Assembly (NCBI GenBank): GCA_028712125.1
Contig: JAQTQS010000002.1
Location: forward strand, 1,417 to 65,416
From: Candidatus Altiarchaeota archaeon
GTDB taxonomy: Archaea > Altiarchaeota > Altiarchaeia > IMC4 > SCGC-AAA252-I15
Reading direction: 5' to 3'
DNA length: 64,000 bases
The notes under the pieces were generated by a model. The model saw only the letters and a list, made by a program, of their open reading frames with translations. It was not told the origin of the DNA and searched no databases. Of the stretch, positions 14,112-29,357 are shown in pieces. Every line of letters begins with the position of its first letter. The first letter of the stretch is position 1. Made by a program: the position numbers and the translations under genes.

Positions 14112-14588
14112 TCACGTGTTGAAAAAATCATCCATTCCTTCGTCGTCGTACGGGTCTCTTTCCTCGAAGTCGTCCTCGAATGTGCTGGCTTTTTCCTCGT
14201 CGCCGGCCGCATCGAGGTCGTCGTCCTCGTCCTCTACTTTTTTACGGGTGAGTATTTCCTCAGCGCCTCCTTTTTTTCCTTTTTTCTTTTTGCTGATGTG
14301 GGCGCATTTCTTGGTCTTGGTGTTGAAGAAGTCGCACATGTCGCAGCATCCCTTCTTCTCCTCGCAGAATTCGAATTCCGGGCATTCCTTGCAGCATTTT
14401 GCCTTAATCTTCGCCTTTTCGGTTTCGTCTTCTGTAAGCTCCTTGATTGTCGTTGCCTTTGGGGCGGCCTTTTCTGCCTCCTCCAGAAGGATTTCCTTCC
14501 GGGTTTTTGCCTTGGCTTTTGGCCTGTGCGAAGCGTTTGCCTTGGGCCTTTCCTTCCTGGTTTTTTTCTTCACCTTCGACTTTACCAT
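14112..14588 (-). CDS. Hypothetical Lys-rich / Cys8His-cluster / acidic-tail protein
   Basis: 158 aa. Basic N-terminus (KSKVKKKTRKERPK...), CCKECPEFEFCEEKKGCCDMCDFFNTKTKKCAH, poly-Lys, then an acidic C-terminus ending DDEGMDDFFNT. Stop is 13 nt before the OB-fold gene start. Confidence 0.6.
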   Translation of the reverse strand: MVKSKVKKKTRKERPKANASHRPKAKAKTRKEILLEEAEKAAPKATTIKELTEDETEKAKIKAKCCKECPEFEFCEEKKGCCDMCDFFNTKTKKCAHISKKKKGKKGGAEEILTRKKVEDEDDDLDAAGDEEKASTFEDDFEERDPYDDEGMDDFFNT

Positions 14589-14687: not shown

Positions 14688-15290
14688 CTATGATAGCGCG
14701 AAGTCTATTACGTACCTTTTGTTCGCGTTCGCCGAGACGTTCTGGTTTAGCCGTATGTCTCCTATGGTGACGTATATCCCGTAGTCATTGCCGGTTGTGG
14801 CTTCGAACGAGTATTCGCCCCTCCAGTTGGTCCATGTGGTTGCCTTTGTGGCGTTGGCCGTCTCGTCCCTCAGTTCCACGGTTAGGTTCTGGTAGGCCCC
14901 GCAGGTTTTGGTGTTGAAGACCTGTCCTTCTATGGCCGGCTGTGTGAGTGTCTGGTTTTCCGCAACTTTCTGGTAGCATGAGCTTTTGAGCGTTATGTCG
15001 GCTATCTGGTCGCATATTTTTTCATTGTGCCGGTTCAGGGCGTTTCCGAAGTGGCATCGGTCGCGCTTGCATGCGGTCTTCATCATGAGGCATTCCGGCA
15101 GGGCGTTGGGGTCCTGCCATAGCGTTGTCACCGGCGTTCTGGTGTCCTCCTCCATCGTAGTAGTGCCCTCTTCCATTGTTGTCGAAGTTGTCGCCGTTTT
15201 CAATAGGCGCTCGTTTCCCTGTAGGAAGTACCAGCCTGCGAGCGCGATGGCTGCCCCTGCCAGAATGAGCTTCAGGTGCGCATCTTTCAT
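14688..15290 (-). CDS. Secreted or anchored protein with Cys motif and carboxypeptidase-regulatory-like beta-sandwich
   Basis: N-terminal hydrophobic segment (LKLILAGAAIALAGWYFL), Thr-rich linker, Cys motif CDQIADITLKSSCYQKVA, C-terminal IEGQVFNT...WRGEYSFEATTGNDYGIYV (CarboxypepD_reg-like pattern). Confidence 0.6.
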   Translation of the reverse strand: MKDAHLKLILAGAAIALAGWYFLQGNERLLKTATTSTTMEEGTTTMEEDTRTPVTTLWQDPNALPECLMMKTACKRDRCHFGNALNRHNEKICDQIADITLKSSCYQKVAENQTLTQPAIEGQVFNTKTCGAYQNLTVELRDETANATKATTWTNWRGEYSFEATTGNDYGIYVTIGDIRLNQNVSANANKRYVIDFALS

Positions 15291-15328
15291 AGTTCTTACT
15301 AATCGGTATTGGGCTTTAAAAATGGTGG

Positions 15329-16333
15329 CTAGAATCCCATCATGCCGCCCAAAAAGTATTTTAGCAGGTAGTGTGCGACGTAAAAGAGCACGATGGCTAT
15401 CGTCCCCAGTACCGGCATGTACTTGAATCCCGCGGCTTCCTCGCCCTTCAGGATGAGCCCCATCACCAATGACCCGAGGATGGAGGATATGAGGATGGAA
15501 ATGGCCGAGTACATTACGGCGAATTCCGGCGTTATCGTTATGTTTCCGGGCGAAATAGGCATTGCGGCGCCCGAAATTCCCTTCATGTTCGCAGGCATCT
15601 GGGCTGATATCATCTGCATGTTCTTGACCAGCAGTTCGAGCAGGAAGCTTGAGAGGGAGAACAGCATGGGCGCTCCGATCGCTATCGCTATCGCTATGAA
15701 CATGGCGTACATTAGGACGCTTGCGCTTATCTCCTTTTGTATTATCTGCTGGTCCCTCATGTCGTCGGCCGTCTGGTCGAGCAGGTCGGCCAGCTCTCCG
15801 CCGGACTTCAGGCTCTGGACTATGAGCGCTATGGTGCGGTCCATGTCCTTGGACCTGATTCTTGCGGTCGACCGCCTCAGGGCGTCGGTGAAGCTTCTGC
15901 CGGCCATAGTCTCCCTGCCGATTTTGCTTATTTCCTCGCGCAGGGGCCCGAATTCCGGCCGTGCCGCCATGAGGAGGGCCTTGTCTGTGGTGAGGCCTGC
16001 CCGTATGTTGGAGGCCATGAGCTGGAGTGCGTCGGGGAGGATGCTTTCAACGAATTTTGCCTTTGATTCGGCGGACAGCTGGAGCATTATGAATATTGCG
16101 GCGGCGTATAAGGCTAGGGCGCCTGTGAATACCATGGGTATGTTGTATTTGAGGTAGGAGGCTGCCGCCGCTGACACGATTGTCGAGAACATGAGGCCTG
16201 TTAGTGTTATCAGGTTCAGGAATTGGTCCGGGTCGATTTCTATGCTGGAGTATATGACGAGCTGGCGGTAGGAGTCGAGGAGTTTTCTGGGTATTATCCG
16301 TTCGACTGTCGGCTTCTGGGCCTGTGTTTTCAT
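15329..16333 (-). CDS. Type II secretion system F-domain membrane protein (TadC / FlaJ C-half-like)
   Basis: 334 aa. Cytoplasmic helical domain flanked by TM helices, as in T2SS-F/PilC-family proteins. Immediately downstream of its paralog and the ATPase. Confidence 0.78.
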   Translation of the reverse strand: MKTQAQKPTVERIIPRKLLDSYRQLVIYSSIEIDPDQFLNLITLTGLMFSTIVSAAAASYLKYNIPMVFTGALALYAAAIFIMLQLSAESKAKFVESILPDALQLMASNIRAGLTTDKALLMAARPEFGPLREEISKIGRETMAGRSFTDALRRSTARIRSKDMDRTIALIVQSLKSGGELADLLDQTADDMRDQQIIQKEISASVLMYAMFIAIAIAIGAPMLFSLSSFLLELLVKNMQMISAQMPANMKGISGAAMPISPGNITITPEFAVMYSAISILISSILGSLVMGLILKGEEAAGFKYMPVLGTIAIVLFYVAHYLLKYFLGGMMGF

Positions 16334-16334
16334 T

Positions 16335-17237
16335 TCATCCTCCGATGAGGTTTGGTCGCTTGGAGCGTATTATCATCATGAATATGCCCTGTAGTATGGT
16401 GAATATCACGAGGAGCATCCAGAATGTCTGTTCGTTGGCGAGCGAGGATGCGGCGCCGGGGATTGAGGACAGGATTATCAGCAGTGTGATGCTGAGTGAG
16501 GGCATTATGACCGCGACCATCATGTACATCATTGCGAGGGGGTTTAGTATCGACTTGTAGCGGCGCACTTCCACGAGCTGTTCCTTTGACAGCGTCGTTA
16601 TTATGTCCGATAAGTTGTCGCCTACGTTGCTTCCGGCCTTGATGCCGTTGACGAGCTGCCATAGCGCCCGCCTGAAGTACATGGAGGGGTTTCGTATCGC
16701 CAGCTCTTCCAGTGTTTCGACCATCGGCTGGCCTGCGTTGACTTTTTCAACGAAGATTTTGAGTTCGGTTGAGATTGGCCCGTAATCGCCGTTGGCTATG
16801 GATACGAAGGAGTTGAATATCGGCACGCCGGAGCGTATCTGGACGAGGATGCTGCGCAGCGCGAAGAGTAGGTTTCGCTCTATGTACTTTACGCGCTTGT
16901 TGACGATTGAGGTTGGGTATGCCATCATGTAGACTACCATCATGACGCCTACGAATATCCCTATGAGGCCTGCTAGCATGTTGTCCGGCTTTCCGCTGGC
17001 TGAAAGCGGCAGGCTTACCGCCCCTCCTGAGAGGAGCCCTCCTATGACCGCAACTGTTACGGTTATCGCAAAGTAGCTTCTTGTGTTGAGGGCGTATGTT
17101 TCGGAAACGCCTGATTGCTTGAGTGTCAGCTCCATGTGGGGGAATATCTTCGCCATTATGCTCCCCGGCATTATGAAGAGCCGTGAAAGGTTTCGTATCA
17201 ATGGCGACCTGAGTATGGGCAGCCCCCTGTCTTTCAT
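16335..17237 (-). CDS. Type II secretion system F-domain membrane protein (TadB / FlaJ N-half-like)
   Basis: 300 aa with the same architecture. Its stop codon is separated from the next gene's ATG by a single nucleotide. Confidence 0.78.
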   Translation of the reverse strand: MKDRGLPILRSPLIRNLSRLFIMPGSIMAKIFPHMELTLKQSGVSETYALNTRSYFAITVTVAVIGGLLSGGAVSLPLSASGKPDNMLAGLIGIFVGVMMVVYMMAYPTSIVNKRVKYIERNLLFALRSILVQIRSGVPIFNSFVSIANGDYGPISTELKIFVEKVNAGQPMVETLEELAIRNPSMYFRRALWQLVNGIKAGSNVGDNLSDIITTLSKEQLVEVRRYKSILNPLAMMYMMVAVIMPSLSITLLIILSSIPGAASSLANEQTFWMLLVIFTILQGIFMMIIRSKRPNLIGG

Positions 17238-17317
17238 GATGATTTAACATTACATTCCGGGGATATATAAGACAGAATCCGGCTTTCAGCTGGCTTACCG
17301 GGGCTGGTTTAGGGGGG

Positions 17318-18841
17318 TTATACTTCCAGCAGCGTATTGGGCGGTTTGTTCTGGATTGCGGCGTCTATGACTGTCTCCTTGTCCATATAATAGTAGTTCA
17401 TTATTTTCCCGACTTCCTCGACCTGTCGCAGTTTGTTTTCCACCAGCCAGTCGAGTATCGTCTTCTTTATCTCGACTTCCTTTTGGAGCTCGTCCCGGTT
17501 CATGCCGGTATGGCGTTCAAGCTCGTCATATAGGCGTATCGGCTGGTTTATCATCGGGTAGCTGTCGTCCCGCGCGCGCCATGAGTAGATTATGTTCGGC
17601 CGGTATTTGATTTGGCCGCTTCGGGCGCTTTCCTCGTCCATTATGAATTCGCCGAGTTCGAATATCCTTCTTATGCCGCGCCGGCGGTCTCGGAACATGA
17701 CCACGTTCAGGTGCACGGAGTCCAGCATGCTGTGCGGGATGTTGACCGGCGGGTTTGTCAGGCGCGTTATGGTTTGGTGGCAGGTGTCCGCGTGGAGCGT
17801 GCAGTATACCGAGTGGCCGGTGTGCATTGCTTCGAATAGCACTTCGGCTTCCCTTTGTTTCCTGACTTCGCCCATTATTATCCTGTCCGGGCGCATTCTC
17901 AGCGAGTTGACGAGTAGGTCGAGCATCGAGACTTCGCCTTTGCCTTCGGGGTTCGGCTCCCTTGTGACTAGGGGGCACCAGTATAGGAAGCTCGGCAGCT
18001 GGAGCTCGCGGGTGTCTTCTATGGAGAGTATGCGGTGGTTTGGCTGGATGAACGGCATGAGGATGTTCAGCAGGCTCGTCTTTCCTGAGGCGGTTCCCCC
18101 GGAGACTATCATGTTCATCTCGTACTGGATGGCAAGCCACATGAGCGCGAGTATCTCGGAGCTGATGGTCTTGTTCATGATGAAGTCGGGGGCGGTCCAA
18201 GGGTCGCGGGCGAACTTCCTTATCGTTATCGTGTTGCCTTTTGATGCTATCGGGCTTAGGATGGCGTTCGCACGGTCCTTGCTTATGAGGTGGGCGTCAA
18301 GAAGCGGGTTGAGGGTCGTGATTTCCCGCCCTATGCGCCTTGCTATGGTGCTTGCGTAGTTCAGTATCTTGGCTTCGGTTTTTATCGTTATGTTTGTCAG
18401 CAGCCAGCCGTATTTCTTGTGGTAGACCCGGACTGGTTCGCTTGCCGAGTTGATGACGATTTCCTCGAGGTATGGGTCCTGGAGGAAGAACTCGATTTCA
18501 TCCAGCCCCAGGAGTTCGTTGAGCAGGCTCAGGACGAAGTGGTCTTTTACCGCCTTGTCCAGGCTGGGCAGCTCTTCCATTAGTATCCTGTTGGCGTTTT
18601 CCTTGAATGTCCTTTTCAGGTTGTCGATGGCGTCCTCGCTCTGGAGCTCCTCGCCGTCCATTTCCACGCCGGATATGAGTTTGTCCTTTATGTCGTCAAG
18701 CAGCGCGGATGTTGCGATGTCCACTTGGGGGACGACGATTTTGTAAAGCTTCAGGTTGTGTTCGAAAACCACTGCTATTGGGGTTTTTGTATCCCCGGTC
18801 AAGACGTCGTAGACCTCCAGGACCTTTTCATTGCTTGTCAT
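17318..18841 (-). CDS. Type IV pilus / archaellum-family secretion ATPase (PilB/FlaI/TadA-like)
   Basis: Walker A SGGTASGKTSLLN, Asp box/Walker B (RILSIEDTRELQL; PDRIIMGEVR), His box (MHTGHSVYCTLHA). Confidence 0.92.
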   Translation of the reverse strand: MTSNEKVLEVYDVLTGDTKTPIAVVFEHNLKLYKIVVPQVDIATSALLDDIKDKLISGVEMDGEELQSEDAIDNLKRTFKENANRILMEELPSLDKAVKDHFVLSLLNELLGLDEIEFFLQDPYLEEIVINSASEPVRVYHKKYGWLLTNITIKTEAKILNYASTIARRIGREITTLNPLLDAHLISKDRANAILSPIASKGNTITIRKFARDPWTAPDFIMNKTISSEILALMWLAIQYEMNMIVSGGTASGKTSLLNILMPFIQPNHRILSIEDTRELQLPSFLYWCPLVTREPNPEGKGEVSMLDLLVNSLRMRPDRIIMGEVRKQREAEVLFEAMHTGHSVYCTLHADTCHQTITRLTNPPVNIPHSMLDSVHLNVVMFRDRRRGIRRIFELGEFIMDEESARSGQIKYRPNIIYSWRARDDSYPMINQPIRLYDELERHTGMNRDELQKEVEIKKTILDWLVENKLRQVEEVGKIMNYYYMDKETVIDAAIQNKPPNTLLEV

Positions 18842-19794
18842 TTTTTCTGTTTTTTCGTTATCTCCGGCTCTCCTATAGTGTGGTAGTTTATCGTCACAAG
18901 GTTGTGCTCCTCAAGGATGACGGCCCATTCCTCCAGTTTTTCCTTGCTTATTCCAATCTCGTGCGCCAGCGCATCATTTATCTTTACCTTATCTCTTTTG
19001 TCTACTAGGTTAAATAGTTTGTCAATTGTGGTCTCGACCATCACTCCCTCCGTCTTGGAGGCTTCCTGGACTTTTTGTTCGGCGCGTTTCTGAAGCAGTT
19101 TTTCGGTCAGCATACCGAACCTCCGCTCCTTTATCCTCGCTATAAGGTCTTGTTTCGGATTTGACTGCGGCGGTTGCGCGGCGGGCTCCAGTCTGAAGCG
19201 TCCTCTGAACTCGGGTCTAGGCTTCGGGCCGCTGGTGCCTAGCATGCTCCTCATGGCGTCAAAGAATCCTCCTTTTTGCTTCAGGGGCACTTCTTTTATG
19301 CCGAGGCTTTTTTTCATCGTGTCGAATGCCTTGTTCTCCTCGAAGGGTTGTTCCGGCAGCTGGCCGCCGGGTCTGTCCTGGGAGCCGGCTTTCCCCTCGT
19401 CTTCAGTCTGCTGGCTTTCTGCAGGGGCTGTTTTTATCCTTATCTTGAATGTTTCAAGCGGTATCCTGTTTTCAAGGACGGCCTTGGAGTTCGAGCTTAA
19501 TGTCATGTGCATGTCCTCCTGGTGGAAACGTAGTATCTTCAGGTCGCCTTCGGAGCCGGCGAGGTTCTTGATCTGTTCGAATGCAGCTTCCTTGTAGACG
19601 GGTTCAGCGCCTTCGATAGAAAGTTCTAATGCCACGACTTCTCCTTCAGCGATGAGAAGTTCGGTCGTGTACGCCTTCCCCTCGATGCTGCCGTGCATCC
19701 TCATGAGGCCGTTGAAAGTCTGCCTGCCTTTTCTTGACATGGCGAAGACCTGGGCCTCTTCGAGGGTGAGGGGTTCTCCGTAAGGGAGTTCCAT
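18838..19794 (-). CDS. Hypothetical protein translationally coupled to the pilus ATPase, with C-terminal wHTH-like module
   Basis: 318 aa. Its stop overlaps the ATPase start (ATGA at 18838-18841). Disordered Pro/Gln/Glu-rich centre; C-terminal KINDALAHEIGISKEKLEEWAVILEEHNLVTINY. Confidence 0.6.
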   Translation of the reverse strand: MELPYGEPLTLEEAQVFAMSRKGRQTFNGLMRMHGSIEGKAYTTELLIAEGEVVALELSIEGAEPVYKEAAFEQIKNLAGSEGDLKILRFHQEDMHMTLSSNSKAVLENRIPLETFKIRIKTAPAESQQTEDEGKAGSQDRPGGQLPEQPFEENKAFDTMKKSLGIKEVPLKQKGGFFDAMRSMLGTSGPKPRPEFRGRFRLEPAAQPPQSNPKQDLIARIKERRFGMLTEKLLQKRAEQKVQEASKTEGVMVETTIDKLFNLVDKRDKVKINDALAHEIGISKEKLEEWAVILEEHNLVTINYHTIGEPEITKKQKK

Positions 19795-19831
19795 AATAAT
19801 CTACTTATTGCTTTTCAGGGGTATTAAGATG

Positions 19832-22420
19832 TTATGTGCAGCTGAGGTTTAAGTCGTCGATTACCCACCCCTTTGCCGTATGCTCATCGTCCGAGACGAA
19901 TCTGAACTGCAGCATGATGTTTTCTCCTGTATAGAAGTCTAAGGGTATGGTTTCCTTGATCCATGAGCTTGTTGAGCCCACGTCGGTTCCGTAGATTTTC
20001 AGCATTGTCCATGTGTCGCCGTTGTCTGTTGATATCTCCACTGTTGCGTTGTCGCAGCTGGGCGACCCGCAGTTTTCAGTGTCAAGCCTGTGCTGGAATG
20101 TGAGCGTGGCGCTTGATGTTGCCGTTATGTCGATGATTGGCGTGTGCACCCATTCGTTTGCGTTGTCTGTGTACTTTGAGGCGGAGTTGGTAGACCGGGT
20201 GTTGCTTCCCGAGTAGGCGCTGCCCCATGACGGCGCCCCGCGAATCCAGCCGGGACTGGTTCCTCCGGATGTCCATCCCTGTTCGGTTTCCATGTCATCG
20301 TACAGGCCGCAGATTGTTGTTGCCACGCGGCTGCTGCTACTGCTTGAACTTTGTTGGCTGCTGCTGCTGCTTGAGGTTGCTATGCTGTTCATTGAGGAGC
20401 TGCTGCTTGAGCTGGTGCTGCTGCTTGAGGTTGCTATGCTGTTCATTGAGGAGCTGCTGCTTGAGCTGGTGCTGCTGCTGCTGGTTTCTATGCTGTTGAC
20501 CGACGAGCTGCTGCTGCTGGTGCTTGACGAACTGCTGCTGGTTGGGAGGTAGATTATGCTGCTGCTGCTGCTACTGCTGCTGCTCTCCATGCTGCTGGAC
20601 GTCATCCTGCTCATGTGGGGGGTCATCCACTCAACGATGCTGCTGCTGCTTGAGCTGCTGCTGGAGCTCAGGGCGCTGCTGCTTGTGCTCGCATACAAAC
20701 TGCTGCTGCTTGAGCTGATGGAAATCTCGCTGCTGCTGGTGCTTTCGTACCAGCTTTCATTGCTGGTGCTGCTACTGCTGCTGCTACTGCTGCTGCTTTC
20801 GGCGCTGGTGCTGGTGCTTGCTTCGCTGCTGCTCGTGCTGGAACTGCTGCTGCTGCTCGAGCTGGCGTAGTTCGGGCACTCATTCACGCTGACGCACTCC
20901 GTATCCAGCTGGAAGTCATAAGCGTGCGCGCAGTCCAATTTCAACTTGTACGCGCCAATCCCGCAGGAGCCGACTACCGGACAGCCTGTCACGTTCATCC
21001 AGTAAAGATAGTCAACCCACGACTCATTTTCCTTGATGGCAATGCCCTTGAGTGCAAAGTCGTAGGGGCTTATCAGCGTTTCAATCCCGATTCTTGTGTT
21101 GTTGAAGTAGTCGCGGCTTTGGTTGCGGTAGAACTCGCTGAGGTTGTAGCGCCCGTCCAGCCGGTCCAGGAAGCTTGGGCCGTCGTAGTTTCCGTCGCAT
21201 GCGTAGGATGTCATGTCGCTGATGCGGTAGCATGACGTGTTTATCCCTGCAGGGTCGAATCCGATTAATACTTCATGGGTTGCCGGCCCGCTGGGGCAGA
21301 TTTGGTTTTTGACGCTGACGCAGGTGATGTTTGGCTGGGTTATGTTCCCCAGGCTGCAGTTGGCGCGGTGAGTTTCCCATGTGTCTGTGTAGTTATCCAC
21401 TGCTCCCGTGTCTAGAATCCACGGGATGCTGACATCACACTTGTTTATTATCGAGTTCGCGTCATTCGGCCCTTCGTCAATCACGCCTGCTATGTGGTTC
21501 ACCCACGACGAGTTAAAGCACTCGTCGTCAATCTGGTTGCACGAGCCGGCGGCGGTATCAATGATGAGGATGATATTGCTCCTGTCTGGCATAGTCTCGT
21601 TGCAGAACCGCGGTTCGCTGTTAGGCAGGCTGTGTTTTATGTCAGAGTAGAACACTGCCACGCCGCTTCCTGTCTCGTTGTTCATAGCCCCCTCCTCGCT
21701 GCAGCCGGCGACAAGCTGTCCGCTCAGCTTGTTGCTGCAGTTTTCTATGAACTTGACCATCTGGCCGTTGGTGTTTATCGGGTATAGGACGTCCTCGAGG
21801 CCTAGGATGGACGTGAAGGCGGTGATTTCGTGTGTTCCCTTGTAGAAGCAGATGTCCTCCTTGTCTTCGACTTCCAGGTTGGTGTTGAGTATTACTGCAA
21901 AGTTCCATGCGTCGTACATTACCACCGTGATGTTGTTGACCTGCATGGTTACGTTGAAGTTGAGGTTGTCGCCTTCGCGGATGATTCTGTCCATCCACTT
22001 GGAGAGTGTGTGGTTTTCCATGTAGCTTATGTTCCTGCCCTGCATGGTGCCGCACATAATCAGTTCGTCTATTGCGGCAGGCGAGCCTGTGATTTCGTGC
22101 GCGAACCGGCTGCAGTCTATGCCGCAGGAGCTGGTACAGTTGAATCGGTAGCCTTCAAGCGTGTCCCCGGATATGACAATGCTGTCGATTCCGTAGATGG
22201 CGGCCCTCCTGCCGAAGATTCCCATGGCCCTCTCTAGGTCTTTGTTTATGTCCTGTACGAAGTAGTGAAGTTCGTCGCACCTTATTTTAGCAATGGTGTC
22301 TTCGCTTTTCGTATTGATGGACGTGGCGTAGTACTCCACGAGCAGCAGAAGGGGTATTATCAGCAGGACTGCGGCTAGCGTGAAGATGAAGCCTTTTCGT
22401 TCCATTTTTGTCACATCCAT
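19832..22420 (-). CDS. Giant class III signal-peptide (pilin-like) surface protein with poly-Ser region and C-terminal jelly-roll (MAM / InhA-C-terminal-like) domain
   Basis: N-terminus MERKG|FIFTLAAVLLIIPLLLLV. Many Cys and N-x-S/T sequons, a roughly 190-aa Ser-rich tract, and a C-terminal domain (EQGWTSGG...WVHTPIIDIT...ATLTFQHRLDTE...ATVEISTDNGDTWTML...IMLQFRFVSDDEHTAKGWVIDDLNLS). Confidence 0.75.
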   Translation of the reverse strand: MDVTKMERKGFIFTLAAVLLIIPLLLLVEYYATSINTKSEDTIAKIRCDELHYFVQDINKDLERAMGIFGRRAAIYGIDSIVISGDTLEGYRFNCTSSCGIDCSRFAHEITGSPAAIDELIMCGTMQGRNISYMENHTLSKWMDRIIREGDNLNFNVTMQVNNITVVMYDAWNFAVILNTNLEVEDKEDICFYKGTHEITAFTSILGLEDVLYPINTNGQMVKFIENCSNKLSGQLVAGCSEEGAMNNETGSGVAVFYSDIKHSLPNSEPRFCNETMPDRSNIILIIDTAAGSCNQIDDECFNSSWVNHIAGVIDEGPNDANSIINKCDVSIPWILDTGAVDNYTDTWETHRANCSLGNITQPNITCVSVKNQICPSGPATHEVLIGFDPAGINTSCYRISDMTSYACDGNYDGPSFLDRLDGRYNLSEFYRNQSRDYFNNTRIGIETLISPYDFALKGIAIKENESWVDYLYWMNVTGCPVVGSCGIGAYKLKLDCAHAYDFQLDTECVSVNECPNYASSSSSSSSSTSSSEASTSTSAESSSSSSSSSSTSNESWYESTSSSEISISSSSSSLYASTSSSALSSSSSSSSSSIVEWMTPHMSRMTSSSMESSSSSSSSSIIYLPTSSSSSSTSSSSSSVNSIETSSSSTSSSSSSSMNSIATSSSSTSSSSSSSMNSIATSSSSSSQQSSSSSSSRVATTICGLYDDMETEQGWTSGGTSPGWIRGAPSWGSAYSGSNTRSTNSASKYTDNANEWVHTPIIDITATSSATLTFQHRLDTENCGSPSCDNATVEISTDNGDTWTMLKIYGTDVGSTSSWIKETIPLDFYTGENIMLQFRFVSDDEHTAKGWVIDDLNLSCT
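20373..20534. repeat. 54-nt tandem repeat inside the poly-Ser coding region
   Basis: Copies at 20373-20426 and 20427-20480 match at 53 of 54 positions by my reading. A third, diverged copy follows. Each unit encodes about 18 aa (SSSSTSSSSSSSMNSIAT). Confidence 0.85.
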
Positions 22421-25380
22421 AGTATAAGCTTGAACTTTGCCGGCCCCCAGAGGGACTTGACCCCTCCTGCCTGTATTACCTCGAACTTCACGGTGTCTGG
22501 GTTGAATAGGACGTCCACCCTGCCGTTGTTGTCAAAGTCGAGGTGTTTCATCAGCCGGTAAATGGAGTTGTCGATGCAGTCGTAGGCGCTTGCGGTCTGG
22601 TTGCTTGAGGTGTAGTAGCATTGCTCTGTGCCGTTGTACGATATCGGTATCTTGGCGGTCAAGGTCGTTCCGTCCTCGAATTCCATGGTCCACTCGCATC
22701 CTTCTGCCGTTTGGAAGACGTCGCCGTAGTCTACCATCATCTTCGCTCTTACGGTGTAGATGGCTCGGCTGTCGCCGGAGCAGCCGGTGCGCGTGTACTG
22801 GCCGTCGCCGGTTTCAATGTGGATGGTGTTGTTCACGCCCGATTCGAGGTCAGCGACTGGGATGTAGGCTATGAACGGGTTGCCGAGTATCGCATACGGC
22901 ATGCCGCCGCCATTGCCGTAGTCGTCCCACAGCCTATACGGCTGGTAATCCCCGACGCTCAAAAAGTCGGTCCAGTGCTCCCCTGAATATGAAGTCACCT
23001 TGGCGTCCGCTATTACAACATCCGAAGGCGCGAATAAATACCCCCTGCATGTGGCTGCGTCGCCGAACGGGTTCGTCGTGTAGACAAACGACAGTTCCCC
23101 GTAATCGCTGACGTCGCTAGGATCAAACCTCGTCTGGATGTAAGAGTCCCCGTACAATATTGTCCCGCTGGAGCCGCTTTCGTTTAGCAGCAGGGTTCGG
23201 TAAGTGCTGTTTATCTGTCCGGCGACGTCCATGTAGGCGCTTTCAAGGTCTTGCGCCCCCGCTGCCGCGTGATAGTACTCAGTGCGGGAGGCTATGCCCT
23301 CAAGGAGGCTTTCGCTGGCGAACGGTCCGAGTCCTATTGTGAATATCTTGGTGCCGTTGTTTTTCGCCTCCAATGCGCGCTGTAGGGCGATTGCCGGCCC
23401 TGCGTCGTTCAGGCCGTCGGTCAGCAGGACTATTATGTGCTGGACGTTGCTGCGGCTTCGAACGCTCTGAAGTTCGCTGTTGGCGTCGATGATGCCCAGG
23501 TGGATTGCGGTTCCGCCGCCTATGAAACTCTGGTTTACTTGGATTTGGATTTGTGTCTTGTTTTCAGTCAGGGCTGCTTTCGGCGTTGATGCGGTTGAGA
23601 ACTCCACGTAGCCCACATGGTCGTCCGGCGCAAGCTGCTGGAGGAAGGCGTTCGCCGCCGACCGGACTGCGTCCGCCATTATGACGGTATCCGTCTTGTT
23701 GATATCGTCGTCTGACGTTGCGTCGGTGTCCGCGTAGATGCTTATGTTCACGTTGATATCGGCGGGCGGTCCTGTTTTGGGCTGCAGGTCCCAGCCGTAG
23801 ACCGCAACCTCCCATGCGCCGGCCAGCGGGTTTTCGATATAGACCGCCTGTGGCTTGGTGCTGACGCCGCTGTAATATTCGTTGGTATTGCCGATTGTGT
23901 CGTTTGGCGGGTCGACTATTCCGGTGACGTTTTCAGGAGTTGAGGAGTAACCTCCTATCACCCAACTATTGTCAGGCCGTTTAAGGCTGATTACGACTTC
24001 CGAGCTTTCGGAGCCGTTAAATCCGTCTTTTGCGCCCCATGTCGCTGATGCCGCAAGGCGTTTGACTGAGGCGTTGATTGTGAACGTCTGGAGGCTTGAC
24101 CAGCCTGCGTCTGGCACGGTGATGTTTTCAAACACTTCGGAGGCGTTTCCGGCGGCGGTGAGCTGCCATCCGGCCTGTTCCATGCTGTCTGAAATGTCGT
24201 TGACCAGCATGATGTCCACGTACGACACGCTGGATACGTTGCCTATGCTGATATAAAAGGGCACGGTTTTGTCTCCTATCTGGGCGTATGACAACTTTGT
24301 CGAAAGGTAGCTGTCAGGAAGTGTACATACATATTCTCCGGTGGTGTAATTGATGCTGCAGTAGCCTGCGGTTTGGTTTGTTTCAAAAATCAGCGCGTCG
24401 CCTATGGTCATGAACGTCGTGTAGTTGCTCTTGAAGTGCAGGTATGCGTCCATGGTGTCTATCACTCCCGGGACGTATAAAGACGACCGCAGGTCAATGA
24501 GGCCGTTGATTTCTGGCAGCCAGTCTTCCTGCACCTTTGACGCCTCCTCGGTGTCAGCCTCGCCGGTTGTGTACTCCACCCTGAGGAAGCCGCCTCTTAT
24601 GTATTTGTCTTCGAGGTCGGCGCCTAGGAATATGATTTTGATTGCGTAATCGCCTCCAGTAAAGTATGGGCCCGGCGAGGCGATACAGGCGTTCGAGCCG
24701 TTGACGTTAGGGCCCATTCCGGTTCCCGATGGCGTGAAAGACGCAGGGTTTGAGACAGGGACTCCGTTAATCTCGACAGTGAACGCGTCGCCGGCGTTCA
24801 GCTCAAAGCACGCGCTAGTGACGTTGGCGTCGCCGGGAAGGTCATGCAGGATGACGGTGATATCGCCCTTGCCGACCGAACCTCCGAAGAAAAGGTATCT
24901 GGTATTAGTCTTCTCCCGTATGCCGGTGAGAAAAGCCCTGCTGACGTGTCCTCGGATGGGCATGCCTTTGCCGTAGCCGACTAGCAGGCGTTCGGCGTTG
25001 GTTTTGGTGGGTGACTCACCTTCCACAGGGCGCTGGCTGTCGTTGCTTTCGGCGATTATGTCGTTTTCAACCTCCAGCCGGTAGCCCATGTTGTAGGGTA
25101 TCAGCATCTCAAGGTAGGTTTGGCTTATATTCTGGGCCGTCTGCCAGAACGACGAGTTTGTTGTTCCGTTCGAATTAGCCCACGCCTCGCCGATGTCGTC
25201 GAGCACCCCGTTCTTGTTCAGGGTGTCAAAGGCGTCTTCAGACGCGTAGTGCAGTTTTTTAAAAGAAACCTCCTCGGAGTGGTACTTGTAGTATCCGCTG
25301 AGCCCGTATAGGACGATAAAGGAGAATGACAGGGCGATTATGGAATCCAATACGATTGCATACCCTTTCTTCATTTCCAC
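22411..25380 (-). CDS. Giant class III signal-peptide (pilin-like) protein with von Willebrand A domain
   Basis: N-terminus MEMKKG|YAIVLDSIIALSFSFIVLYGL. vWA with MIDAS DxSxS (MLVNDISDSME) and HIIVLLTDGLNDAG. 989 aa. Overlaps both neighbouring genes by 10 nt each. Confidence 0.8.
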   Translation of the reverse strand: MEMKKGYAIVLDSIIALSFSFIVLYGLSGYYKYHSEEVSFKKLHYASEDAFDTLNKNGVLDDIGEAWANSNGTTNSSFWQTAQNISQTYLEMLIPYNMGYRLEVENDIIAESNDSQRPVEGESPTKTNAERLLVGYGKGMPIRGHVSRAFLTGIREKTNTRYLFFGGSVGKGDITVILHDLPGDANVTSACFELNAGDAFTVEINGVPVSNPASFTPSGTGMGPNVNGSNACIASPGPYFTGGDYAIKIIFLGADLEDKYIRGGFLRVEYTTGEADTEEASKVQEDWLPEINGLIDLRSSLYVPGVIDTMDAYLHFKSNYTTFMTIGDALIFETNQTAGYCSINYTTGEYVCTLPDSYLSTKLSYAQIGDKTVPFYISIGNVSSVSYVDIMLVNDISDSMEQAGWQLTAAGNASEVFENITVPDAGWSSLQTFTINASVKRLAASATWGAKDGFNGSESSEVVISLKRPDNSWVIGGYSSTPENVTGIVDPPNDTIGNTNEYYSGVSTKPQAVYIENPLAGAWEVAVYGWDLQPKTGPPADINVNISIYADTDATSDDDINKTDTVIMADAVRSAANAFLQQLAPDDHVGYVEFSTASTPKAALTENKTQIQIQVNQSFIGGGTAIHLGIIDANSELQSVRSRSNVQHIIVLLTDGLNDAGPAIALQRALEAKNNGTKIFTIGLGPFASESLLEGIASRTEYYHAAAGAQDLESAYMDVAGQINSTYRTLLLNESGSSGTILYGDSYIQTRFDPSDVSDYGELSFVYTTNPFGDAATCRGYLFAPSDVVIADAKVTSYSGEHWTDFLSVGDYQPYRLWDDYGNGGGMPYAILGNPFIAYIPVADLESGVNNTIHIETGDGQYTRTGCSGDSRAIYTVRAKMMVDYGDVFQTAEGCEWTMEFEDGTTLTAKIPISYNGTEQCYYTSSNQTASAYDCIDNSIYRLMKHLDFDNNGRVDVLFNPDTVKFEVIQAGGVKSLWGPAKFKLILWM

Positions 25381-25910
25381 ACCGTTAGTCTAATCCTGAC
25401 TATTGTCATGTTCAGCTGGCTCGTCCTGACCATGGTCACCTTTTTCGTGTCCTGCGAAGGCCGCATGCCGGTCGTGCACGGTATGCCTCTGAGGGATAAA
25501 GTGCTGTCATTTATGTATTCCATAGCAAAGTAAAAATCATAGTTGCCTATGCCCGTAAGGTGCTTGTTGCACTCGTAGTTTGAAATCCCGCCGCCGCAGG
25601 AATTGTTATACAGGCTTGTGTTCATCATATATATGAAGTCCGAGAGCTTGTCCTCGTTTATGTTCCTGCTTGAATTGCACAGCCCTATGGTCTTGACATC
25701 GGCGCGAGACCAGTTCTCCGGGATACCCGCGGTCCTCACAAGGTTCTCGCTGACGTCGACCGCGGCGCCCTCGATATCGGACAAGTCCTCGGCCGCGAGT
25801 ATGTCAAATACCACGCTACCCCACAGGTATACCACGATGATGAGCACTATGGTGAAGACTATGTACGCCACCATCAATTCCGCGCTGACCATCTGGCCCG
25901 TTTTCCGCAT
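25371..25910 (-). CDS. Archaeal type IV pilin-like protein (class III signal peptide)
   Basis: MRKTG|QMVSAELMVAYIVFTIVLIIVVYLW: G|Q cleavage context with an acidic residue in the following hydrophobic helix. Confidence 0.7.
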   Translation of the reverse strand: MRKTGQMVSAELMVAYIVFTIVLIIVVYLWGSVVFDILAAEDLSDIEGAAVDVSENLVRTAGIPENWSRADVKTIGLCNSSRNINEDKLSDFIYMMNTSLYNNSCGGGISNYECNKHLTGIGNYDFYFAMEYINDSTLSLRGIPCTTGMRPSQDTKKVTMVRTSQLNMTIVRIRLTVWK

Positions 25911-25918
25911 TTTTCCCC

Positions 25919-26626
25919 TTATATTGTTATGGTACGGTTTACCATGTTGTCAGACTCTATGCTCTCCTCCACCCTATTGGTGACGTCCGCAACTATGACG
26001 ACCGGGTACCCCCCCGACGGAAAGCCGATTATCGTATGGTTTATCTCCACCTCCTCGTACGGGTTGAGTCCTGATAACCCCTTTCCCGCTCCGTCCAGCG
26101 AGATGTTGAAGTCGGCCGAGCCGACTTGGGCGTCGTTTTCAAAATGCACGCTGACCGTGACGTTCCCGCCGTCGTTCCAGTAGCGGAAGCTTTCATCCAG
26201 CGGCCGAAGGTTCGGCTTGTAGCAGGTTATGGAGAGGTTGTTGCCCTCGTTTCTCACGCGGTTCGTCGAGTTAAGGCCGTAGTCAAGGCAGTACACCACG
26301 ACATTGGACGCTATCGTTGTCACTGCCCACGCCTTGTCATTCCACGCGAGCTCTACGACGTTTTGGCTTATGGTCAGGTTGTATTCGTAGTTCCCCTGCA
26401 GCCTTTCAGGTATGGAGAAGTACTTGTAGTATCCCCTGCCCTGCTGCTGTATCGAGTCGAGGTTGTCGCCTACGCTTCCGGAGATGCGTTTGGCGTCTAT
26501 GAAGGTCTTGATGTCCGCGCTTTCCTGGGTCCTGTCAATGGAGTAAACTACCATCAATACGAGTATGAGTATCATGATTACCAGCGCGGTTACCAATTCT
26601 ATGCTGGCCTGGGCTTTGGAGTTCAT
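25919..26626 (-). CDS. Archaeal type IV pilin (DUF361-type N-terminus), probable major pilin
   Basis: MNSKA|QASIELVTALVIMILILVLMVVY: the QxSxE motif with Glu at +5 is typical of archaeal pilin N-termini. First gene of the locus. Confidence 0.8.
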   Translation of the reverse strand: MNSKAQASIELVTALVIMILILVLMVVYSIDRTQESADIKTFIDAKRISGSVGDNLDSIQQQGRGYYKYFSIPERLQGNYEYNLTISQNVVELAWNDKAWAVTTIASNVVVYCLDYGLNSTNRVRNEGNNLSITCYKPNLRPLDESFRYWNDGGNVTVSVHFENDAQVGSADFNISLDGAGKGLSGLNPYEEVEINHTIIGFPSGGYPVVIVADVTNRVEESIESDNMVNRTITI

Positions 26627-26713
26627 CCAATATTAATTACCCTTAATATATGATATATACACACCAGTCGAATATTTTAGGCAGCTGGCTTCAGCAGCGC
26701 AATCAGATGTGCC
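26627..26713. promoter_or_regulatory. Divergent promoter region (pilin operon / GT2 gene)
   Basis: AT-rich CTTAATATATGATATATAC (26642-26660) sits about 20-35 nt upstream of the pilin ATG on the minus strand. GAATATTTTA (26670-26679) lies upstream of the plus-strand GT2 ATG at 26714. Confidence 0.4.
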
Positions 26714-27499
26714 ATGATATCAATAGTCATCCCAACGCTCAACGAGGAGGATAACATACGCAGGCTTATACCTGAGATACTCAGGGTGTTCTCCGGAAGC
26801 GATATCGAGATTGTCGTCGTTGACGGCAACAGCACGGACGGGACGCAGGATACGGTCAGCTCATTCTCCAAAAAGCACAATTTCATAAGGCTTGTGGTGC
26901 AAGCCGGCAAAGGCTTCGCAAACGCCGTTGCCGAGGGCATAGAAGCCGCCGAAGGCGACATAATCGTCACAATGGACGCGGAAAACCACATGCCGTCTGA
27001 AATCCCGAAACTCATCGACGCCCTCGTCGGCAACGGATGCGACGCGGTCATAGGCTCGCGGTTCGTCAAGGGGGCCGACGTCGATCTGGAGCAAAAGCGC
27101 CTACTCTCCTCGAAGATAGCGAACAAGCTCGCCAAGGTCGGCCTGAAGCTGAAGGTGAAGGACTGCTCGTCGGGCTTTCGCGCCTACCGCGCAAGGCCCG
27201 TAAAGCAGGCGGCCAAGAACCTCCGGACGAAGTACTTCTCAGTCCAGGTCGAGATTGTCGAGAGGCTGACGAAGGCCGGCTGCTGTCTGTGCGAAATCCC
27301 GGTCCACTACATCCGGCGTGACAGCGGGGACAGCAAGTTCCGGTTCAAGAGCGCGGTCAAGGATGCGACAACCCTCGTTCGGATAGCCGGCGACAATGAA
27401 ATCGAAAGCCTAAGGCGCACGACAAGGAAGCTCAAGAGCGCCGTCAGCGGGAGGCCGAGACGGCTGAGGCAGGCCATCAAGAAAATCAGGGGCCGTTAG
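26714..27499 (+). CDS. Family 2 glycosyltransferase (Dpm1 / dolichyl-phosphate sugar synthase-like)
   Basis: ISIVIPTLNEEDNI, DxD region IIVTMDAENH, GSRF motif, basic C-terminus. Confidence 0.85.
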   Translation: MISIVIPTLNEEDNIRRLIPEILRVFSGSDIEIVVVDGNSTDGTQDTVSSFSKKHNFIRLVVQAGKGFANAVAEGIEAAEGDIIVTMDAENHMPSEIPKLIDALVGNGCDAVIGSRFVKGADVDLEQKRLLSSKIANKLAKVGLKLKVKDCSSGFRAYRARPVKQAAKNLRTKYFSVQVEIVERLTKAGCCLCEIPVHYIRRDSGDSKFRFKSAVKDATTLVRIAGDNEIESLRRTTRKLKSAVSGRPRRLRQAIKKIRGR

Positions 27500-27515: not shown

Positions 27516-28358
27516 TCATGTCATCCAGGATGCTGCCATCTGAGCAATAAAGCCGGCCGCTATCATGCCGACCAGCTTCATCCTGCTCCTGTGGACTACG
27601 ATATTCCCCTGGCCCATCCTTCCCGCAAGGTAAAGTATTGCGATGGCAGATGCAGCCGCAAGATAAGGCATATGGTTGGAAGCTCCGGCAGCGAGCGCGT
27701 ACAGGCATAAAGCCGTCAGCAGCGTGCGCTGAAGCCTTAATGAATTATTTTTCCCAAGCATCTGCACCGTCGTTTTCAGCTTGGCCTTTCTGTCGATGTC
27801 AAAATCCCTTAGCTCCTGGCTTGTCTGCGTGAACAGCGAGTTGATGACTGCGAAGCCCAGCAGGTACAGCGGGAATGCGGTAAAATTCCTCGTGTAGACG
27901 ACTGCCATGAATGCGGGCCCGGCGTCGATGATTGTCACGTGGTATGCCAGGTCGAGGATTGGCTTTGCCTTCGCGCGGACCGGCGGGCCGGAATATGTGA
28001 AGCCGAGGAAGGTTCGGGCTATCATGGCTGCAAAGAAAACGGCGTCTTTCGTCAGCAGGGCGCACAGCATGCCTGCGATGTATATCCCGACTGAGAGAGT
28101 GAACGACATTTTTTTGCCTATCGTGCCGTTGCTGATGGGATTGGTCTTACGCTTCCACTCTTCAAGCGCGTCGTCGTCAGAGTCGTAGACCCTGTTTATG
28201 GTTATGTCCCCTAAAATTCCAAGCATTATCGATGACAGCGCGAGGATTGCCCCCGCAGGATTCGCCTGCAATACCGCCGGCGCCAGCAGCATGAAGAATG
28301 CGGGTATGAGATACTGCTCGTAAAAGCCCTCGAAAAAGCCCCAGACCCCCCCTTTCAT
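27516..28358 (-). CDS. UbiA-family prenyltransferase (candidate DGGGP synthase)
   Basis: Polytopic. First Asp-rich motif INRVYDSDDDA...TNPISNG, second motif LRDFDIDRK. Overlaps the fni stop region. The family call is firm; substrate assignment rests on context only. Confidence 0.7.
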   Translation of the reverse strand: MKGGVWGFFEGFYEQYLIPAFFMLLAPAVLQANPAGAILALSSIMLGILGDITINRVYDSDDDALEEWKRKTNPISNGTIGKKMSFTLSVGIYIAGMLCALLTKDAVFFAAMIARTFLGFTYSGPPVRAKAKPILDLAYHVTIIDAGPAFMAVVYTRNFTAFPLYLLGFAVINSLFTQTSQELRDFDIDRKAKLKTTVQMLGKNNSLRLQRTLLTALCLYALAAGASNHMPYLAAASAIAILYLAGRMGQGNIVVHRSRMKLVGMIAAGFIAQMAASWMT

Positions 28359-29356: not shown

Positions 29357-29357
29357 C

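Follow-up and report, generated by a model that had tools for sequence, protein, structure and literature searches.

Organization of the Pilus-like Locus

The DNA analysed here is a 64-kb stretch from an Altiarchaeota archaeon (the window), and our subject is a type IV pilus-like gene block on its minus strand, at positions 14688–26626. An earlier interpretation made from the letters alone (the sequence-only reading) had proposed a closely packed pilus locus there, with two very large adhesin-like subunits. Based on the list of open reading frames (ORFs) and their translations, nine consecutive minus-strand ORFs agree exactly with the coordinates of that proposal. They encode pilin-like protein 1 (25919–26626), pilin-like protein 2 (25371–25910), a large protein with a vWA domain (22411–25380), a large protein with a Cys-rich core and a MAM-like domain (19832–22420; the MAM-core protein), a 318-aa cytoplasmic protein (18838–19794), an assembly ATPase (17318–18841), platform proteins 1 (16335–17237) and 2 (15329–16333), and a 200-aa membrane-anchored protein (14688–15290). 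The junctions measure, in order, +8, −4 to −10, +5 to −10, +37, −4, +80, +1 and +38 nt. They thus range from a 10-nt overlap to an 80-nt gap, and at least six of the eight are no longer than 38 nt, as expected from the claim that most genes overlap or lie less than 40 nt apart.

For both large proteins, the starts in database gene calls and family alignments are internal ATGs, opening with MKKG (987 aa) and MERKG (857 aa), so that their basic leaders are only 4–5 residues long. An A/T-rich, TATA-like element, TATATATCATATATTA (26643–26658, minus strand), read directly from the sequence, lies 17–32 nt upstream of the pilin 1 ATG. It is a putative operon promoter, and its intergenic region is common to a divergent GT2 glycosyltransferase gene. 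The AT skew of the plus strand is strongly negative across the nine-ORF region, which fits a single long minus-strand transcription unit. Eight genes, between 26626 and 15329, make up the type IV pilus-like operon; the ninth ORF is considered with the neighbouring genes. Rfam and tRNA scans revealed no RNA genes in the window.

Assembly Machinery

The ATPase (507 aa, 17318–18841, minus strand) belongs to the PilB/FlaI/TadA family of secretion ATPases (Pfam T2SSE, 1.2e-31). It is followed by platform protein 1 (300 aa, 16335–17237, minus strand) and, after a 1-nt gap, by platform protein 2 (334 aa, 15329–16333, minus strand). Each has several predicted transmembrane (TM) segments and a single T2SSF domain matched in one stretch (1.4e-16 and 1.2e-21, respectively); platform protein 1 is of the half-size TadB/TadC-like kind. 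The call of a PilB/FlaI-type ATPase with two T2SS-F membrane proteins is therefore confirmed. Together with subunits carrying class III signals, whose cleavage is predicted, the secretion ATPase and the polytopic T2SSF platform give the locus the components of the type IV filament superfamily.

Among NCBIfam models, FlaI is the best match of the ATPase (4.7e-80). The ATPase also matches the TadA family (2.7e-48), the VirB11 family and the bindosome ATPase BasE (1.4e-43; 149 bits against a cutoff of 1000). The first of these matches would suit an archaellum, that is, a motility locus, and flagellar proteins are part of the Alti-2 core genome as given by Bird et al. (PMC4975002). However, the match to FlaI scores 269.8 bits, less than half the equivalog cutoff of 550, and the nearest ATPase sequence in the Protein Data Bank (PDB) is Archaeoglobus fulgidus GspE (2oap, 5e-65), ahead of FlaI (2e-53) and CpaF (1e-48). 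In place of one FlaJ, two single-domain genes encode the platform, the subunit set is adhesin-like, and no archaellin, FlaF/G, FlaH or FlaCDE/X is encoded in the window. With these features, an archaellum is very improbable. Absences in the window were assessed by a TM scan with Pfam on every multi-TM ORF and by tblastn with family representatives from related loci. They agree with the sequence-only reading, which had seen no prepilin peptidase, KaiC/FlaH-like gene or archaellin; nor was a secondary ATPase of the TadZ/MinD-like kind found in the window.

Class III Signals and Small Pilin-like Proteins

A FlaFind-style scan of all window ORFs of at least 35 aa found a class III motif on four consecutive products, the exported proteins at the head of the operon: SKA/QASIELV (pilin 1), KTG/QMVSAEL (pilin 2), KKG/YAIVLDS (vWA protein) and RKG/FIFTLAAV (MAM-core protein), where the slash marks the predicted cleavage site from which residues are numbered. 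Prepilin-like N-termini had been assigned to these four proteins, and the key residues proved to be conserved in their homologues. Other matches in the window are few and of low quality, including a 226-aa membrane protein (12107–12787). In addition, an internal start within the ORF at 37853–38614 (253 aa) would give a 112-aa product (38276–38614, plus strand) with the class III-like N-terminus MIKDVSKG/FIVVAVILAAIGFF, which may have arisen by chance.

Pilin 1 (235 aa, 25919–26626, minus strand) begins with MNSKA/QASIELV and has Gln at +1 and Glu at +5. It contains 7 N-glycosylation sequons and ends in a weak CARDB-like beta-sandwich (CARDB E = 0.003, under the cutoff), and it is a candidate major or minor pilin. 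The label "DUF361-type" given to it earlier is not supported for the window copy, which matches Pfam Class_IIIsignal (DUF361) only at E = 2.3; its family relatives reach E = 1.8e-4, still below the gathering score. In its family (neighbourhood family 4), Q+1, E+5 and Y+6 are present in 39 of 40 members. Pilin 2 (179 aa, 25371–25910, minus strand; MRKTG/QMVSAEL) has no Pfam or NCBIfam match and shows no detectable similarity to the N-terminus of the vWA protein of the window. It is the most widely conserved small pilin of the related loci, with homologues of 155–197 aa in about 35 Altiarchaeota/DPANN loci.

Pilin 2 falls into a supercluster with small KG/FxFTLD pilins and large vWA proteins, in which D+6 occurs in 84 of 163 members. 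In DPANN archaea, the N-termini of the large vWA proteins (100–165 residues) align with small pilin-like proteins of 140–165 aa that have the same KG/FxFTLD motif, which supports an arrangement of a pilin module plus cargo. Short pilins of about 145 aa from DPANN loci carry Q+1 and E+5 in 45 of 45 cases. The family-wide conservation of the signals goes far beyond that expected of a generic signal anchor. The conserved acidic residue within the hydrophobic helix recalls Glu5 of bacterial pilins.

The Two Large Modular Proteins

The vWA protein (987 aa from its ATG, 22411–25374, minus strand; the 989-aa ORF starts at a GTG at 25380) consists of a class III-like N-terminus (MKKG/YAIVLD) with a helix, a beta-sandwich region, the vWA domain and conserved C-terminal beta domains. 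The vWA domain spans residues ~385–725 (nt 23200–24222; Pfam VWA 7.1e-18) and is split by a beta-rich insert of ~165 residues (aa 400–565), owing to which Pfam picks up the domain only from residue 571. The metal ion-dependent adhesion site (MIDAS) is complete: D393-x-S395-x-S397, T622 and D653. In the family alignment (A1), D393, S395, S397 and D653 are present in 15–16 of 16 homologues, and T622 lies within a GGGT motif whose conservation was read from the alignment consensus only. Gly(−1) is found in 15 and Asp(+6) in 16 of the 16 family members. The earlier call of a vWA domain with a MIDAS thus stands, binding itself being predicted, and the fusion of a pilin-type N-terminus to such a module is what defines a modular vWA pilin.

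An AlphaFold2 model of the vWA protein (mean pLDDT 73.6) shows an N-terminal helix (residues 4–54), beta-sandwich domains, the vWA fold and the C-terminal beta domains. Foldseek matched it to the pilus-tip adhesin SpaC, anthrax toxin receptors (ANTXR), integrin I-domains, TRAP and Streptococcus sanguinis PilB. Sequence profiles against the PDB also gave PilB (7b7p, 9e-9), as well as the fimbrial protein Mfa5. The TadE/TadG N-terminal domains of Pfam do not match the vWA protein, and DUF2341 has no match at E ≤ 0.1 on either large protein.

The MAM-core protein (857 aa from a conserved ATG, 19832–22405, minus strand; the 862-aa ORF extends to 22420) begins with MERKG/FIFTLAAV. It comprises a conserved Cys-rich core (aa 1–515, nt 20861–22405; 26 Cys in the window copy), a linker of 230 residues of which 53.5% are Ser (aa 516–745, nt 20171–20860) and a MAM/jelly-roll domain (aa 746–857, nt 19835–20170; aa 751–860 in the numbering of the 862-aa ORF). 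Pfam assigns the last domain to the InhA-like MAM family (3.7e-10) and to Reelin subrepeat B (4.7e-7), so the description of a Ser-rich/jelly-roll protein was correct. Among 69 homologues found by a word-index search, only the N-terminal ~500 aa are common, the C-termini being absent, of Big_7 type or MAM-like; F+3 and T+4 are kept in 17 of 19 relatives. An exhaustive profile search returned 944 representative clusters at E ≤ 1e-3 and 210 at 1e-30. The named members sampled came from Altiarchaeales IMC4, Altiarchaeota (a LamG variant), Aenigmarchaeota and Woesearchaeota, and all were annotated as hypothetical.

For the core of the MAM-core protein, AlphaFold2 gave a high-confidence model (pLDDT 86.5, pTM 0.80) with a 77-residue N-terminal helix (residues 3–79) followed by alpha/beta domains. 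In the models of both large proteins, N-terminal helices of 50–77 residues precede beta-rich domains, and these long helices fit pilin-type proteins with adhesion modules.

Conservation across Related Loci

The best genome matches of the ATPase are metagenome-assembled genomes (MAGs) of Candidatus Altiarchaeales/Altiarchaeota (80%, then 61–69% identity), followed by Woese-, Pace-, Nano- and Iainarchaeota (52–60%), so that homologues in Altiarchaeota and DPANN span 52–80% identity. The best 80 genome matches are all Altiarchaeota/DPANN-type MAGs, some of them labelled otherwise or generically. ORFs were called at 81 related loci and clustered into families. A recurring core was found in Altiarchaeota and in Woese-, Pace-, Nano-, Iain- and Aenigmarchaeota; it consists of a protein with a winged-helix-like end, then the ATPase and two platform genes, together with the set of pilin, vWA protein and a protein with the ~480-aa core.

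The ATPase is present in 80 of the 81 loci, the pair of single-domain T2SSF genes in 72 and, directly upstream of the ATPase, a protein ending in the ~70-aa domain of the 318-aa protein in 71. The supercluster of pilin 2, the small KG/FxFTLD pilins and the large vWA proteins is represented in 55/81 loci, relatives of pilin 1 in 43/81, a ~145-aa pilin with the invariant N-terminus RG/QAAMEFLMTYGW in 40/81, KaiC-like ATPases (Pfam KaiC 1.6e-61) in 32/81 and MAM-core relatives in 21/81. Where a locus has both genes, the vWA gene is followed by a MAM-core gene on the same strand in 12 of 13 cases, and in DPANN this block is usually divergent from the ATPase block. Linkage of the vWA and MAM-core genes to those of the pilus machinery extends to distant phyla. 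A comparison of the locus architecture across related MAGs had been proposed together with the sequence-only reading; the architecture recurs as an Altiarchaeota/DPANN system and is accordingly not peculiar to this genome.

In the syntenic locus L081, on a 358-kb Altiarchaeota contig, the order of the pilus genes is identical to that in the window, and in both a polyprenyl synthase gene and a gene for an FMN-dependent dehydrogenase (isopentenyl diphosphate isomerase-like) lie upstream of the pilus locus. The DPANN loci L012–L080 contain one to several pilins of about 145 aa (for example, at 3745–4197 and 4492–4932 of L017, both minus strand). Their mature N-terminus is QAA(M/L)E(F/Y)LMTYGWAIL, with Q+1, A+3, E+5, M+8, T+9 and Y+10 in 45 of 45, and Pfam Class_IIIsignal fails to detect them.

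KaiC-like ATPases, present in 31 DPANN loci and in the Altiarchaeota locus L008, adjoin the platform genes in many related loci, often with a DUF7504/KaiC-like protein of ~185 aa; in L008 the gene (1388–2110, minus strand) lies between the ATPase and the first platform gene. The KaiC-like protein resembles the secondary, FlaH-like ATPase known from Epd-like systems; the window locus would have lost it or would keep it elsewhere. In the Altiarchaeota loci L005 and L009–L011, an extra, coiled-coil-like cytoplasmic protein of ~350 aa (weak KELK match) precedes the DUF2226 protein (e.g., L009, 873–1922, plus strand), and tblastn found no platform genes downstream of the ATPase in this subgroup. 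In L005 and L007, an M50 peptidase-CBS gene lies downstream of the ATPase instead.

The Cytoplasmic Partner of the ATPase

The 318-aa protein (18838–19794, minus strand), whose stop overlaps the ATPase start by 4 nt, has no TM segments, Cys residues or sequons. It is composed of a DUF2226-family domain (aa 1–121), a low-complexity K/E/P/Q linker and a winged-helix-like domain (aa 247–318). The window copy has no Pfam match, DUF2226 included. In homologues, DUF2226 was matched in L081 (1.1e-14) and in six of nine Altiarchaeota-type N-domains (best 1.8e-15), and by homology the N-terminal ~120 residues of the window protein can be placed in this family. A relation of the DUF2226 domain to PATAN/DUF4388 was considered and dropped, as no member matches that Pfam family. 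A homologue search with the N-domain alignment returned nothing, and our literature search found no paper mentioning DUF2226.

The C-terminal ~70 residues are the most conserved non-enzymatic element of the system, with 12 positions invariant across Altiarchaeota and DPANN. Against PDB profiles they gave three weak matches only (E 0.5–0.8), all to winged-helix proteins. The proposed wHTH-like C-terminus is thus a strongly conserved and plausible domain, but its winged-helix nature is unproven at such E-values. In DPANN, the domain ends longer proteins (up to ~1,000 aa), and those that were aligned are K/E-rich, often with N-terminal TM segments; they may be the "coiled-coil proteins" described beside CpaF/TadC by Hamm et al. 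(PMC11291902). We suggest that the 318-aa protein could be an adaptor or regulator docked on the ATPase or, alternatively, a DNA-binding regulator.

Interpretation of the Locus

In our view, the locus probably encodes an adhesive Epd/Tad-like pilus, in which the four pilin-like proteins form an initiation/tip complex showing the vWA/MIDAS and MAM modules, and the shaft is built of pilin 1 or of a pilin encoded elsewhere. The sequence-only reading had placed pilins with adhesive domains of about 900 aa on a filament. Its pilin-type N-termini, adhesion modules and linkage to pilus genes were all recovered, and incorporation into a filament is the part that we infer.

Several findings weigh against this interpretation. 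Pfam and NCBIfam pilin models match none of the four class III proteins, the large proteins have Tyr or Phe, not Gln, at +1, and a PDB fold search with the 515-aa core gives no match below E = 0.02 and no pilin among the fold matches. Within the 64-kb window there is no A24 prepilin peptidase. Two scans of genome contigs with a DPANN A24 peptidase, one with a single sequence and one with an 18-sequence alignment, gave DPANN matches only and none from Altiarchaeota; these scans were pattern-limited, the second relying on a single peptide pattern. A short major pilin is likewise missing from the window, where tblastn did not find the RG/QAAMEFLMTYGW pilins of DPANN.

As to the peptidase, the 226-aa membrane protein at 12107–12787 (weak SpoIIGA-like match, KG/V N-terminus) was rejected, since it has 3 TM segments only and no GxGD motif. 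The other multi-TM ORFs were discarded as TatC, a Na/Ca exchanger, CDP-alcohol transferase, UbiA, CarS, PMT_2 and a protein with a spermine/spermidine synthase domain. In a Nanoarchaeota MAG, an A24 peptidase is encoded on the same contig as the homologous locus (Peptidase_A24 8.6e-14). The Epd peptidase EppA requires Gln at +1 (PMC4390842). With Tyr or Phe there, the large proteins may need another peptidase or stay uncleaved.

The latter case leads to another explanation, in which neither large protein is a filament subunit; both would be ordinary adhesins or envelope proteins, kept in the membrane by a signal anchor that is not cleaved, and their genes would merely be co-transcribed with a small pilus system. 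It would account for their +1 residues, which differ from the Gln+1 of the small pilins, for the lack of a peptidase in view, and for a core and N-termini to which no pilin fold or pilin hidden Markov model responds. It would not account for the pilin pattern of the vWA family, with an invariant Asp in the hydrophobic segment (16/16) and a near-invariant Gly after basic residues (15/16), or for the conserved F+3/T+4 of the MAM-core family. The N-termini of DPANN vWA proteins (~100–165 aa) align with small KG/FxFTLD pilin-like proteins, and the gene order with the pilus genes is kept across phyla. We regard this explanation as improbable.

The missing major pilin bears on a further possibility, namely a pseudopilus or bindosome-like display, in which a short membrane-proximal stub holds the vWA and MAM-core proteins at the cell surface and no long pilus is made. 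Such a display has been proposed for the Sulfolobus bindosome and, more generally, for binding proteins with class III signals, and a recent census proposes that type IV filament machineries have been widely functionalised with class III binding proteins (bioRxiv 10.64898/2026.04.22.720090). The locus has no major pilin gene, its four class III proteins are large compared with shaft pilins (179–987 aa), and the ATPase does match BasE (1.4e-43). However, this match is far below both FlaI and its own cutoff (149 vs. 1000 bits), the cargo is of adhesion type (vWA/MIDAS, MAM) rather than solute-binding, and in homologous DPANN loci there are one to several pilins of ~145 aa whose N-terminus does not vary, which is what a shaft subunit would look like. 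A display of this kind therefore seems unlikely, though worth keeping in mind. No credible short Flp/EpdE-like pilin was found among the window ORFs of at least 35 aa in the class III scan; the only short matches were a 40–62-aa ORF (50242–50430, minus strand) and a 40-aa ORF (55589–55711, plus strand), the mature length of the short DPANN pilins being ~145 aa. A short major pilin could be encoded elsewhere in the genome.

For the favoured adhesive pilus, we suggest the following course of assembly. The four pilin-like proteins would be inserted in the membrane and trimmed after Gly/Ala(−1) by an A24 prepilin peptidase whose gene would lie outside the window. Extrusion would then be driven by the ATPase hexamer seated on the two platform proteins, and the DUF2226/winged-helix-like protein may serve in the cytoplasm as an adaptor for the ATPase or as its regulator. 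Bacterial type IV filaments have tip complexes of four minor pilins; here, by analogy, the initiation/tip complex may consist of the two small and the two large proteins. The vWA/MIDAS and lectin-like MAM modules would thereby come to lie at the far tip, carried by a flexible and probably glycosylated stalk rich in Ser, and could there bind a surface, a polymer or another cell. Pilin 1, with its Gln+1, Glu+5 and beta-sandwich body, may polymerize into the shaft, unless a major pilin encoded elsewhere does so.

Comparison with Known Systems

Two contiguous single-T2SSF platform genes mark the Epd-like/Tad clade, in which a secondary FlaH-like or TadZ ATPase adjoins the core (Denise et al., PMC6668835). 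Loci of the archaeal clade 1 have a pair of TadC genes and several minor pilins, along with two large DUF2341 proteins regarded as PilY-like tip adhesins (PMC4858521), and the 2026 census describes a "System 1" in methanogens and DPANN (bioRxiv 10.64898/2026.04.22.720090). Split platforms also occur in clade 2 and in subsystems 4A/4B and are therefore not exclusive (PMC4858521; bioRxiv 10.64898/2026.04.22.720090). From its split platform and Gln+1 pilins, the window locus appears to be nearest to the Epd-like/Tad-like branch of type IV filaments. It has a split platform, small pilins with Gln+1, several class III proteins in cis and two large adhesin-like proteins, while a DUF2341 domain, a KaiC/FlaH-like ATPase, EppA and a short major pilin are absent in cis.

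The Epd pilus of Methanococcus maripaludis (clade 1/"System 1") has the same split platform, several class III proteins per operon, Gln+1 small pilins and a pair of large accessory proteins whose adhesin-like domains are predicted to lie on the filament; it serves in adhesion, the role that we also propose for the window locus. Unlike Epd, the window locus has vWA/MIDAS, the novel ~480-aa core and MAM instead of DUF2341, lacks EppA, FleN/MinD and a FlaH-like ATPase in cis as well as an EpdE-like major pilin of ~70 aa, and couples a DUF2226/winged-helix-like protein to the ATPase. Whether the locus would match an already characterised pilus type had been raised with the sequence-only reading: its architecture does resemble Epd, but the accessory proteins differ, and no known function is attached to it here.

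The bacterial Tad (Flp) pilus, thought to be derived from an archaeal Epd-like system (PMC6668835), resembles the locus in its TadB/TadC-like split platform, its TadA/CpaF-like ATPase (CpaF 1e-48) and a pilin-like protein carrying a vWA domain, TadG (PMC4858521). In contrast to Tad, the locus belongs to an archaeal envelope and has no secretin, TadZ, TadV, Flp-size pilin or TadE/TadG Pfam domain, and its large proteins are twice the typical size of TadG. A vWA module on a pilin of S. sanguinis mediates adhesion (PMC8179133). This protein, PilB (7b7p), was found by profile (9e-9) and by fold search, and in it, too, a vWA domain with a MIDAS comes after a pilin module. However, PilB has 426 aa and works in a Gram-positive system similar to type IVa pili. 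The window protein, a predicted modular pilin, has 987 aa, with additional beta-sandwich domains, the ~165-aa insert in the vWA domain and the conserved C-terminal region.

The complexes of minor pilins and PilY1 at bacterial pilus tips (PMC10191384; bioRxiv 10.64898/2026.02.14.705861) are comparable in that four pilin-like proteins are encoded together with a large vWA-type adhesin, and in the proposed priming of assembly and display of the adhesin at the tip. Bacterial PilY1 is not a pilin, whereas in the window locus pilin-like N-termini and adhesion modules are parts of the same proteins. The four pilin-like proteins showed no sequence homology to bacterial minor pilins.

Earlier work has drawn attention to conserved type IV pilus-like loci in DPANN (PMC11291902). 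The phyla of the cluster 2 loci described there (CpaF/TadC with coiled-coil proteins in Woese-, Pace-, Nano- and Aenigmarchaeota) hold the nearest homologues of the ATPase and platform proteins outside Altiarchaeota, and the gene upstream of their ATPase is often long and K/E-rich, ending in the same ~70-aa domain. That paper differs in including neither Altiarchaeota nor vWA or MAM-core pilin-like proteins, and we infer that locus 1 or locus 2 of Hamm et al. 2024 may be identical with the system described here.

The hami of Ca. Altiarchaeum hamiconexum are also surface appendages of this phylum with an exported protein of the ~100-kDa class, and a pilus-like assembly was once suggested for them (PMC4460559; PMC4975002). 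In contrast, the protein of the hami combines a Sec signal with S_layer_N, NosD and FKBP_C domains, and its gene is not linked to those of a pilus (PMC4460559; PMC4975002). None of these three domains occurs in any of the nine proteins, and a connection with the hami was rejected as unrelated.

Novelty and Significance

What is already known is the Epd/Tad-like core with large adhesin-like class III proteins, predicted in genomic censuses, and the existence of such loci in DPANN. Four elements appear to be undescribed: a modular pilin-like vWA protein in archaea, the ~480-aa core family without a solved fold relative and with interchangeable C-terminal modules, the nearly ubiquitous ATPase partner with a winged-helix-like end, and the extension of the system to Altiarchaeota. 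More tentatively, the locus might represent a distinct, undescribed Epd/Tad-like filament subtype common to Altiarchaeota and most DPANN phyla. Taken jointly, this proposal, which we hold to be possible but rather doubtful, would comprise an ATPase always accompanied by a dedicated partner ending in the ~70-aa winged-helix-like domain; a filament capped by a pair of vWA pilin and ~480-aa-core pilin; and a core, with no solved fold relative, serving as a chassis for exchangeable C-terminal modules (none, Big_7, LamG, MAM). If true, it would be a general attachment organelle of Altiarchaeota/DPANN, including a host-attachment device of DPANN symbionts.

Altiarchaeota and DPANN are abundant, almost wholly uncultivated and known mainly for attachment to each other, to surfaces and to hosts, the molecular basis of which is understood mainly for the hami of one genus. 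The locus offers a concrete and widely conserved candidate, a compact pilus machine whose subunits bear recognisable adhesion modules, one a vWA domain with a metal-dependent site and the other a jelly-roll of lectin-like type on a long Ser-rich stalk. It also offers a large exported family (about 940 representative clusters) whose confidently predicted fold is unlike anything solved. The modular pilin principle, so far demonstrated in a streptococcus only, would gain a counterpart in archaea, and the locus is also relevant to the descent of the bacterial Tad pilus from an archaeal Epd-like system. The gain lies in specifics and testability rather than in a new principle.

Host Lineage and Neighbouring Genes

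The sequence-only reading had suggested host attachment by a streamlined archaeon, which is unsupported for this lineage. The window contains genes for lipid and isoprenoid biosynthesis, which indicate a biosynthetically capable archaeon: geranylgeranyl diphosphate synthase, UbiA prenyltransferase, CDP-archaeol synthase (CarS), CDP-alcohol phosphatidyltransferase and enzymes of the mevalonate pathway. They are clustered at 27516–33255, 10486–11109 and 51480–52061, along with a HAD hydrolase and a mevalonate-3-kinase/MVD-like protein. The Alti-2 clade, which is widespread and better sampled, is regarded as free-living (PMC4975002).

The ninth gene (14688–15290, minus strand) is a doubtful member of the locus. 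Its 200-aa product is anchored in the membrane and contains a Thr-rich linker, a Cys-rich region and a beta-sandwich that weakly resembles CarboxypepD_reg (7.2e-4; 20.3 bits against a cutoff of 32.3). No homologue was found at any of 124 related loci, the L081 operon ends after platform gene 2, and a T5 run directly follows the platform protein 2 stop in the window. For these reasons, the gene is treated as probably separate and lineage-specific, and the inclusion of a secreted beta-sandwich protein in the pilus locus, as proposed earlier, is not upheld. Just downstream, an ORF at 14112–14588 (minus strand) encodes a charged, Lys/Glu-rich protein of 158 aa with a Cys cluster (CCKECPEFEFCEEKKGCCDMCDFF...C), with no Pfam match and no homologue at related loci. 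Both ORFs were rejected as components of the system, as neither has a homologue at related loci. Cys-rich cytoplasmic proteins have been mentioned near clade 1 pilus loci (Makarova 2016, PMC4858521).

The five exported proteins have 2.0–3.4 N-glycosylation sequons per 100 aa, against 0–0.7 in the cytoplasmic and membrane proteins. GT2 glycosyltransferase genes lie on both sides of the pilus locus, at 26714–27499 (plus strand, divergent from the promoter region) and 12875–13576 (minus strand), and a PMT_2-type glycosyltransferase is encoded further off (39726–41291, plus strand). Since the exported pilus proteins are rich in sequons and one has the 230-aa Ser tract, these enzymes are possible glycosylation partners.

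About 30 kb from the pilus locus, there is a second vWA-rich operon, of MoxR/Bat type (55929–63316, minus strand). It encodes a DUF7502 protein (62393–63316), a MoxR AAA_3 ATPase (61392–62396; 1.4e-62), a DUF58 protein (60494–61372), a 643-aa BatA-N/VWA_2/DUF7408 protein and a 1018-aa VWA/DUF7408 protein with a C-terminal TM segment. Some archaeal pilus loci have been linked to MoxR-vWA pairs (Makarova 2016, PMC4858521). A 696-aa FG-GAP/beta-propeller membrane protein is encoded at 53621–55711 (plus strand) of the window, and a 970-aa FG-GAP beta-propeller protein directly upstream of the L081 pilus operon (5477–8389, minus strand). FG-GAP propellers beside vWA/MIDAS proteins are reminiscent of integrin alpha/beta pairs. 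Finally, a 743-aa multi-TM protein (33219–35450, plus strand) has an embedded spermine/spermidine synthase domain (4.6e-24), an unusual membrane-embedded architecture.

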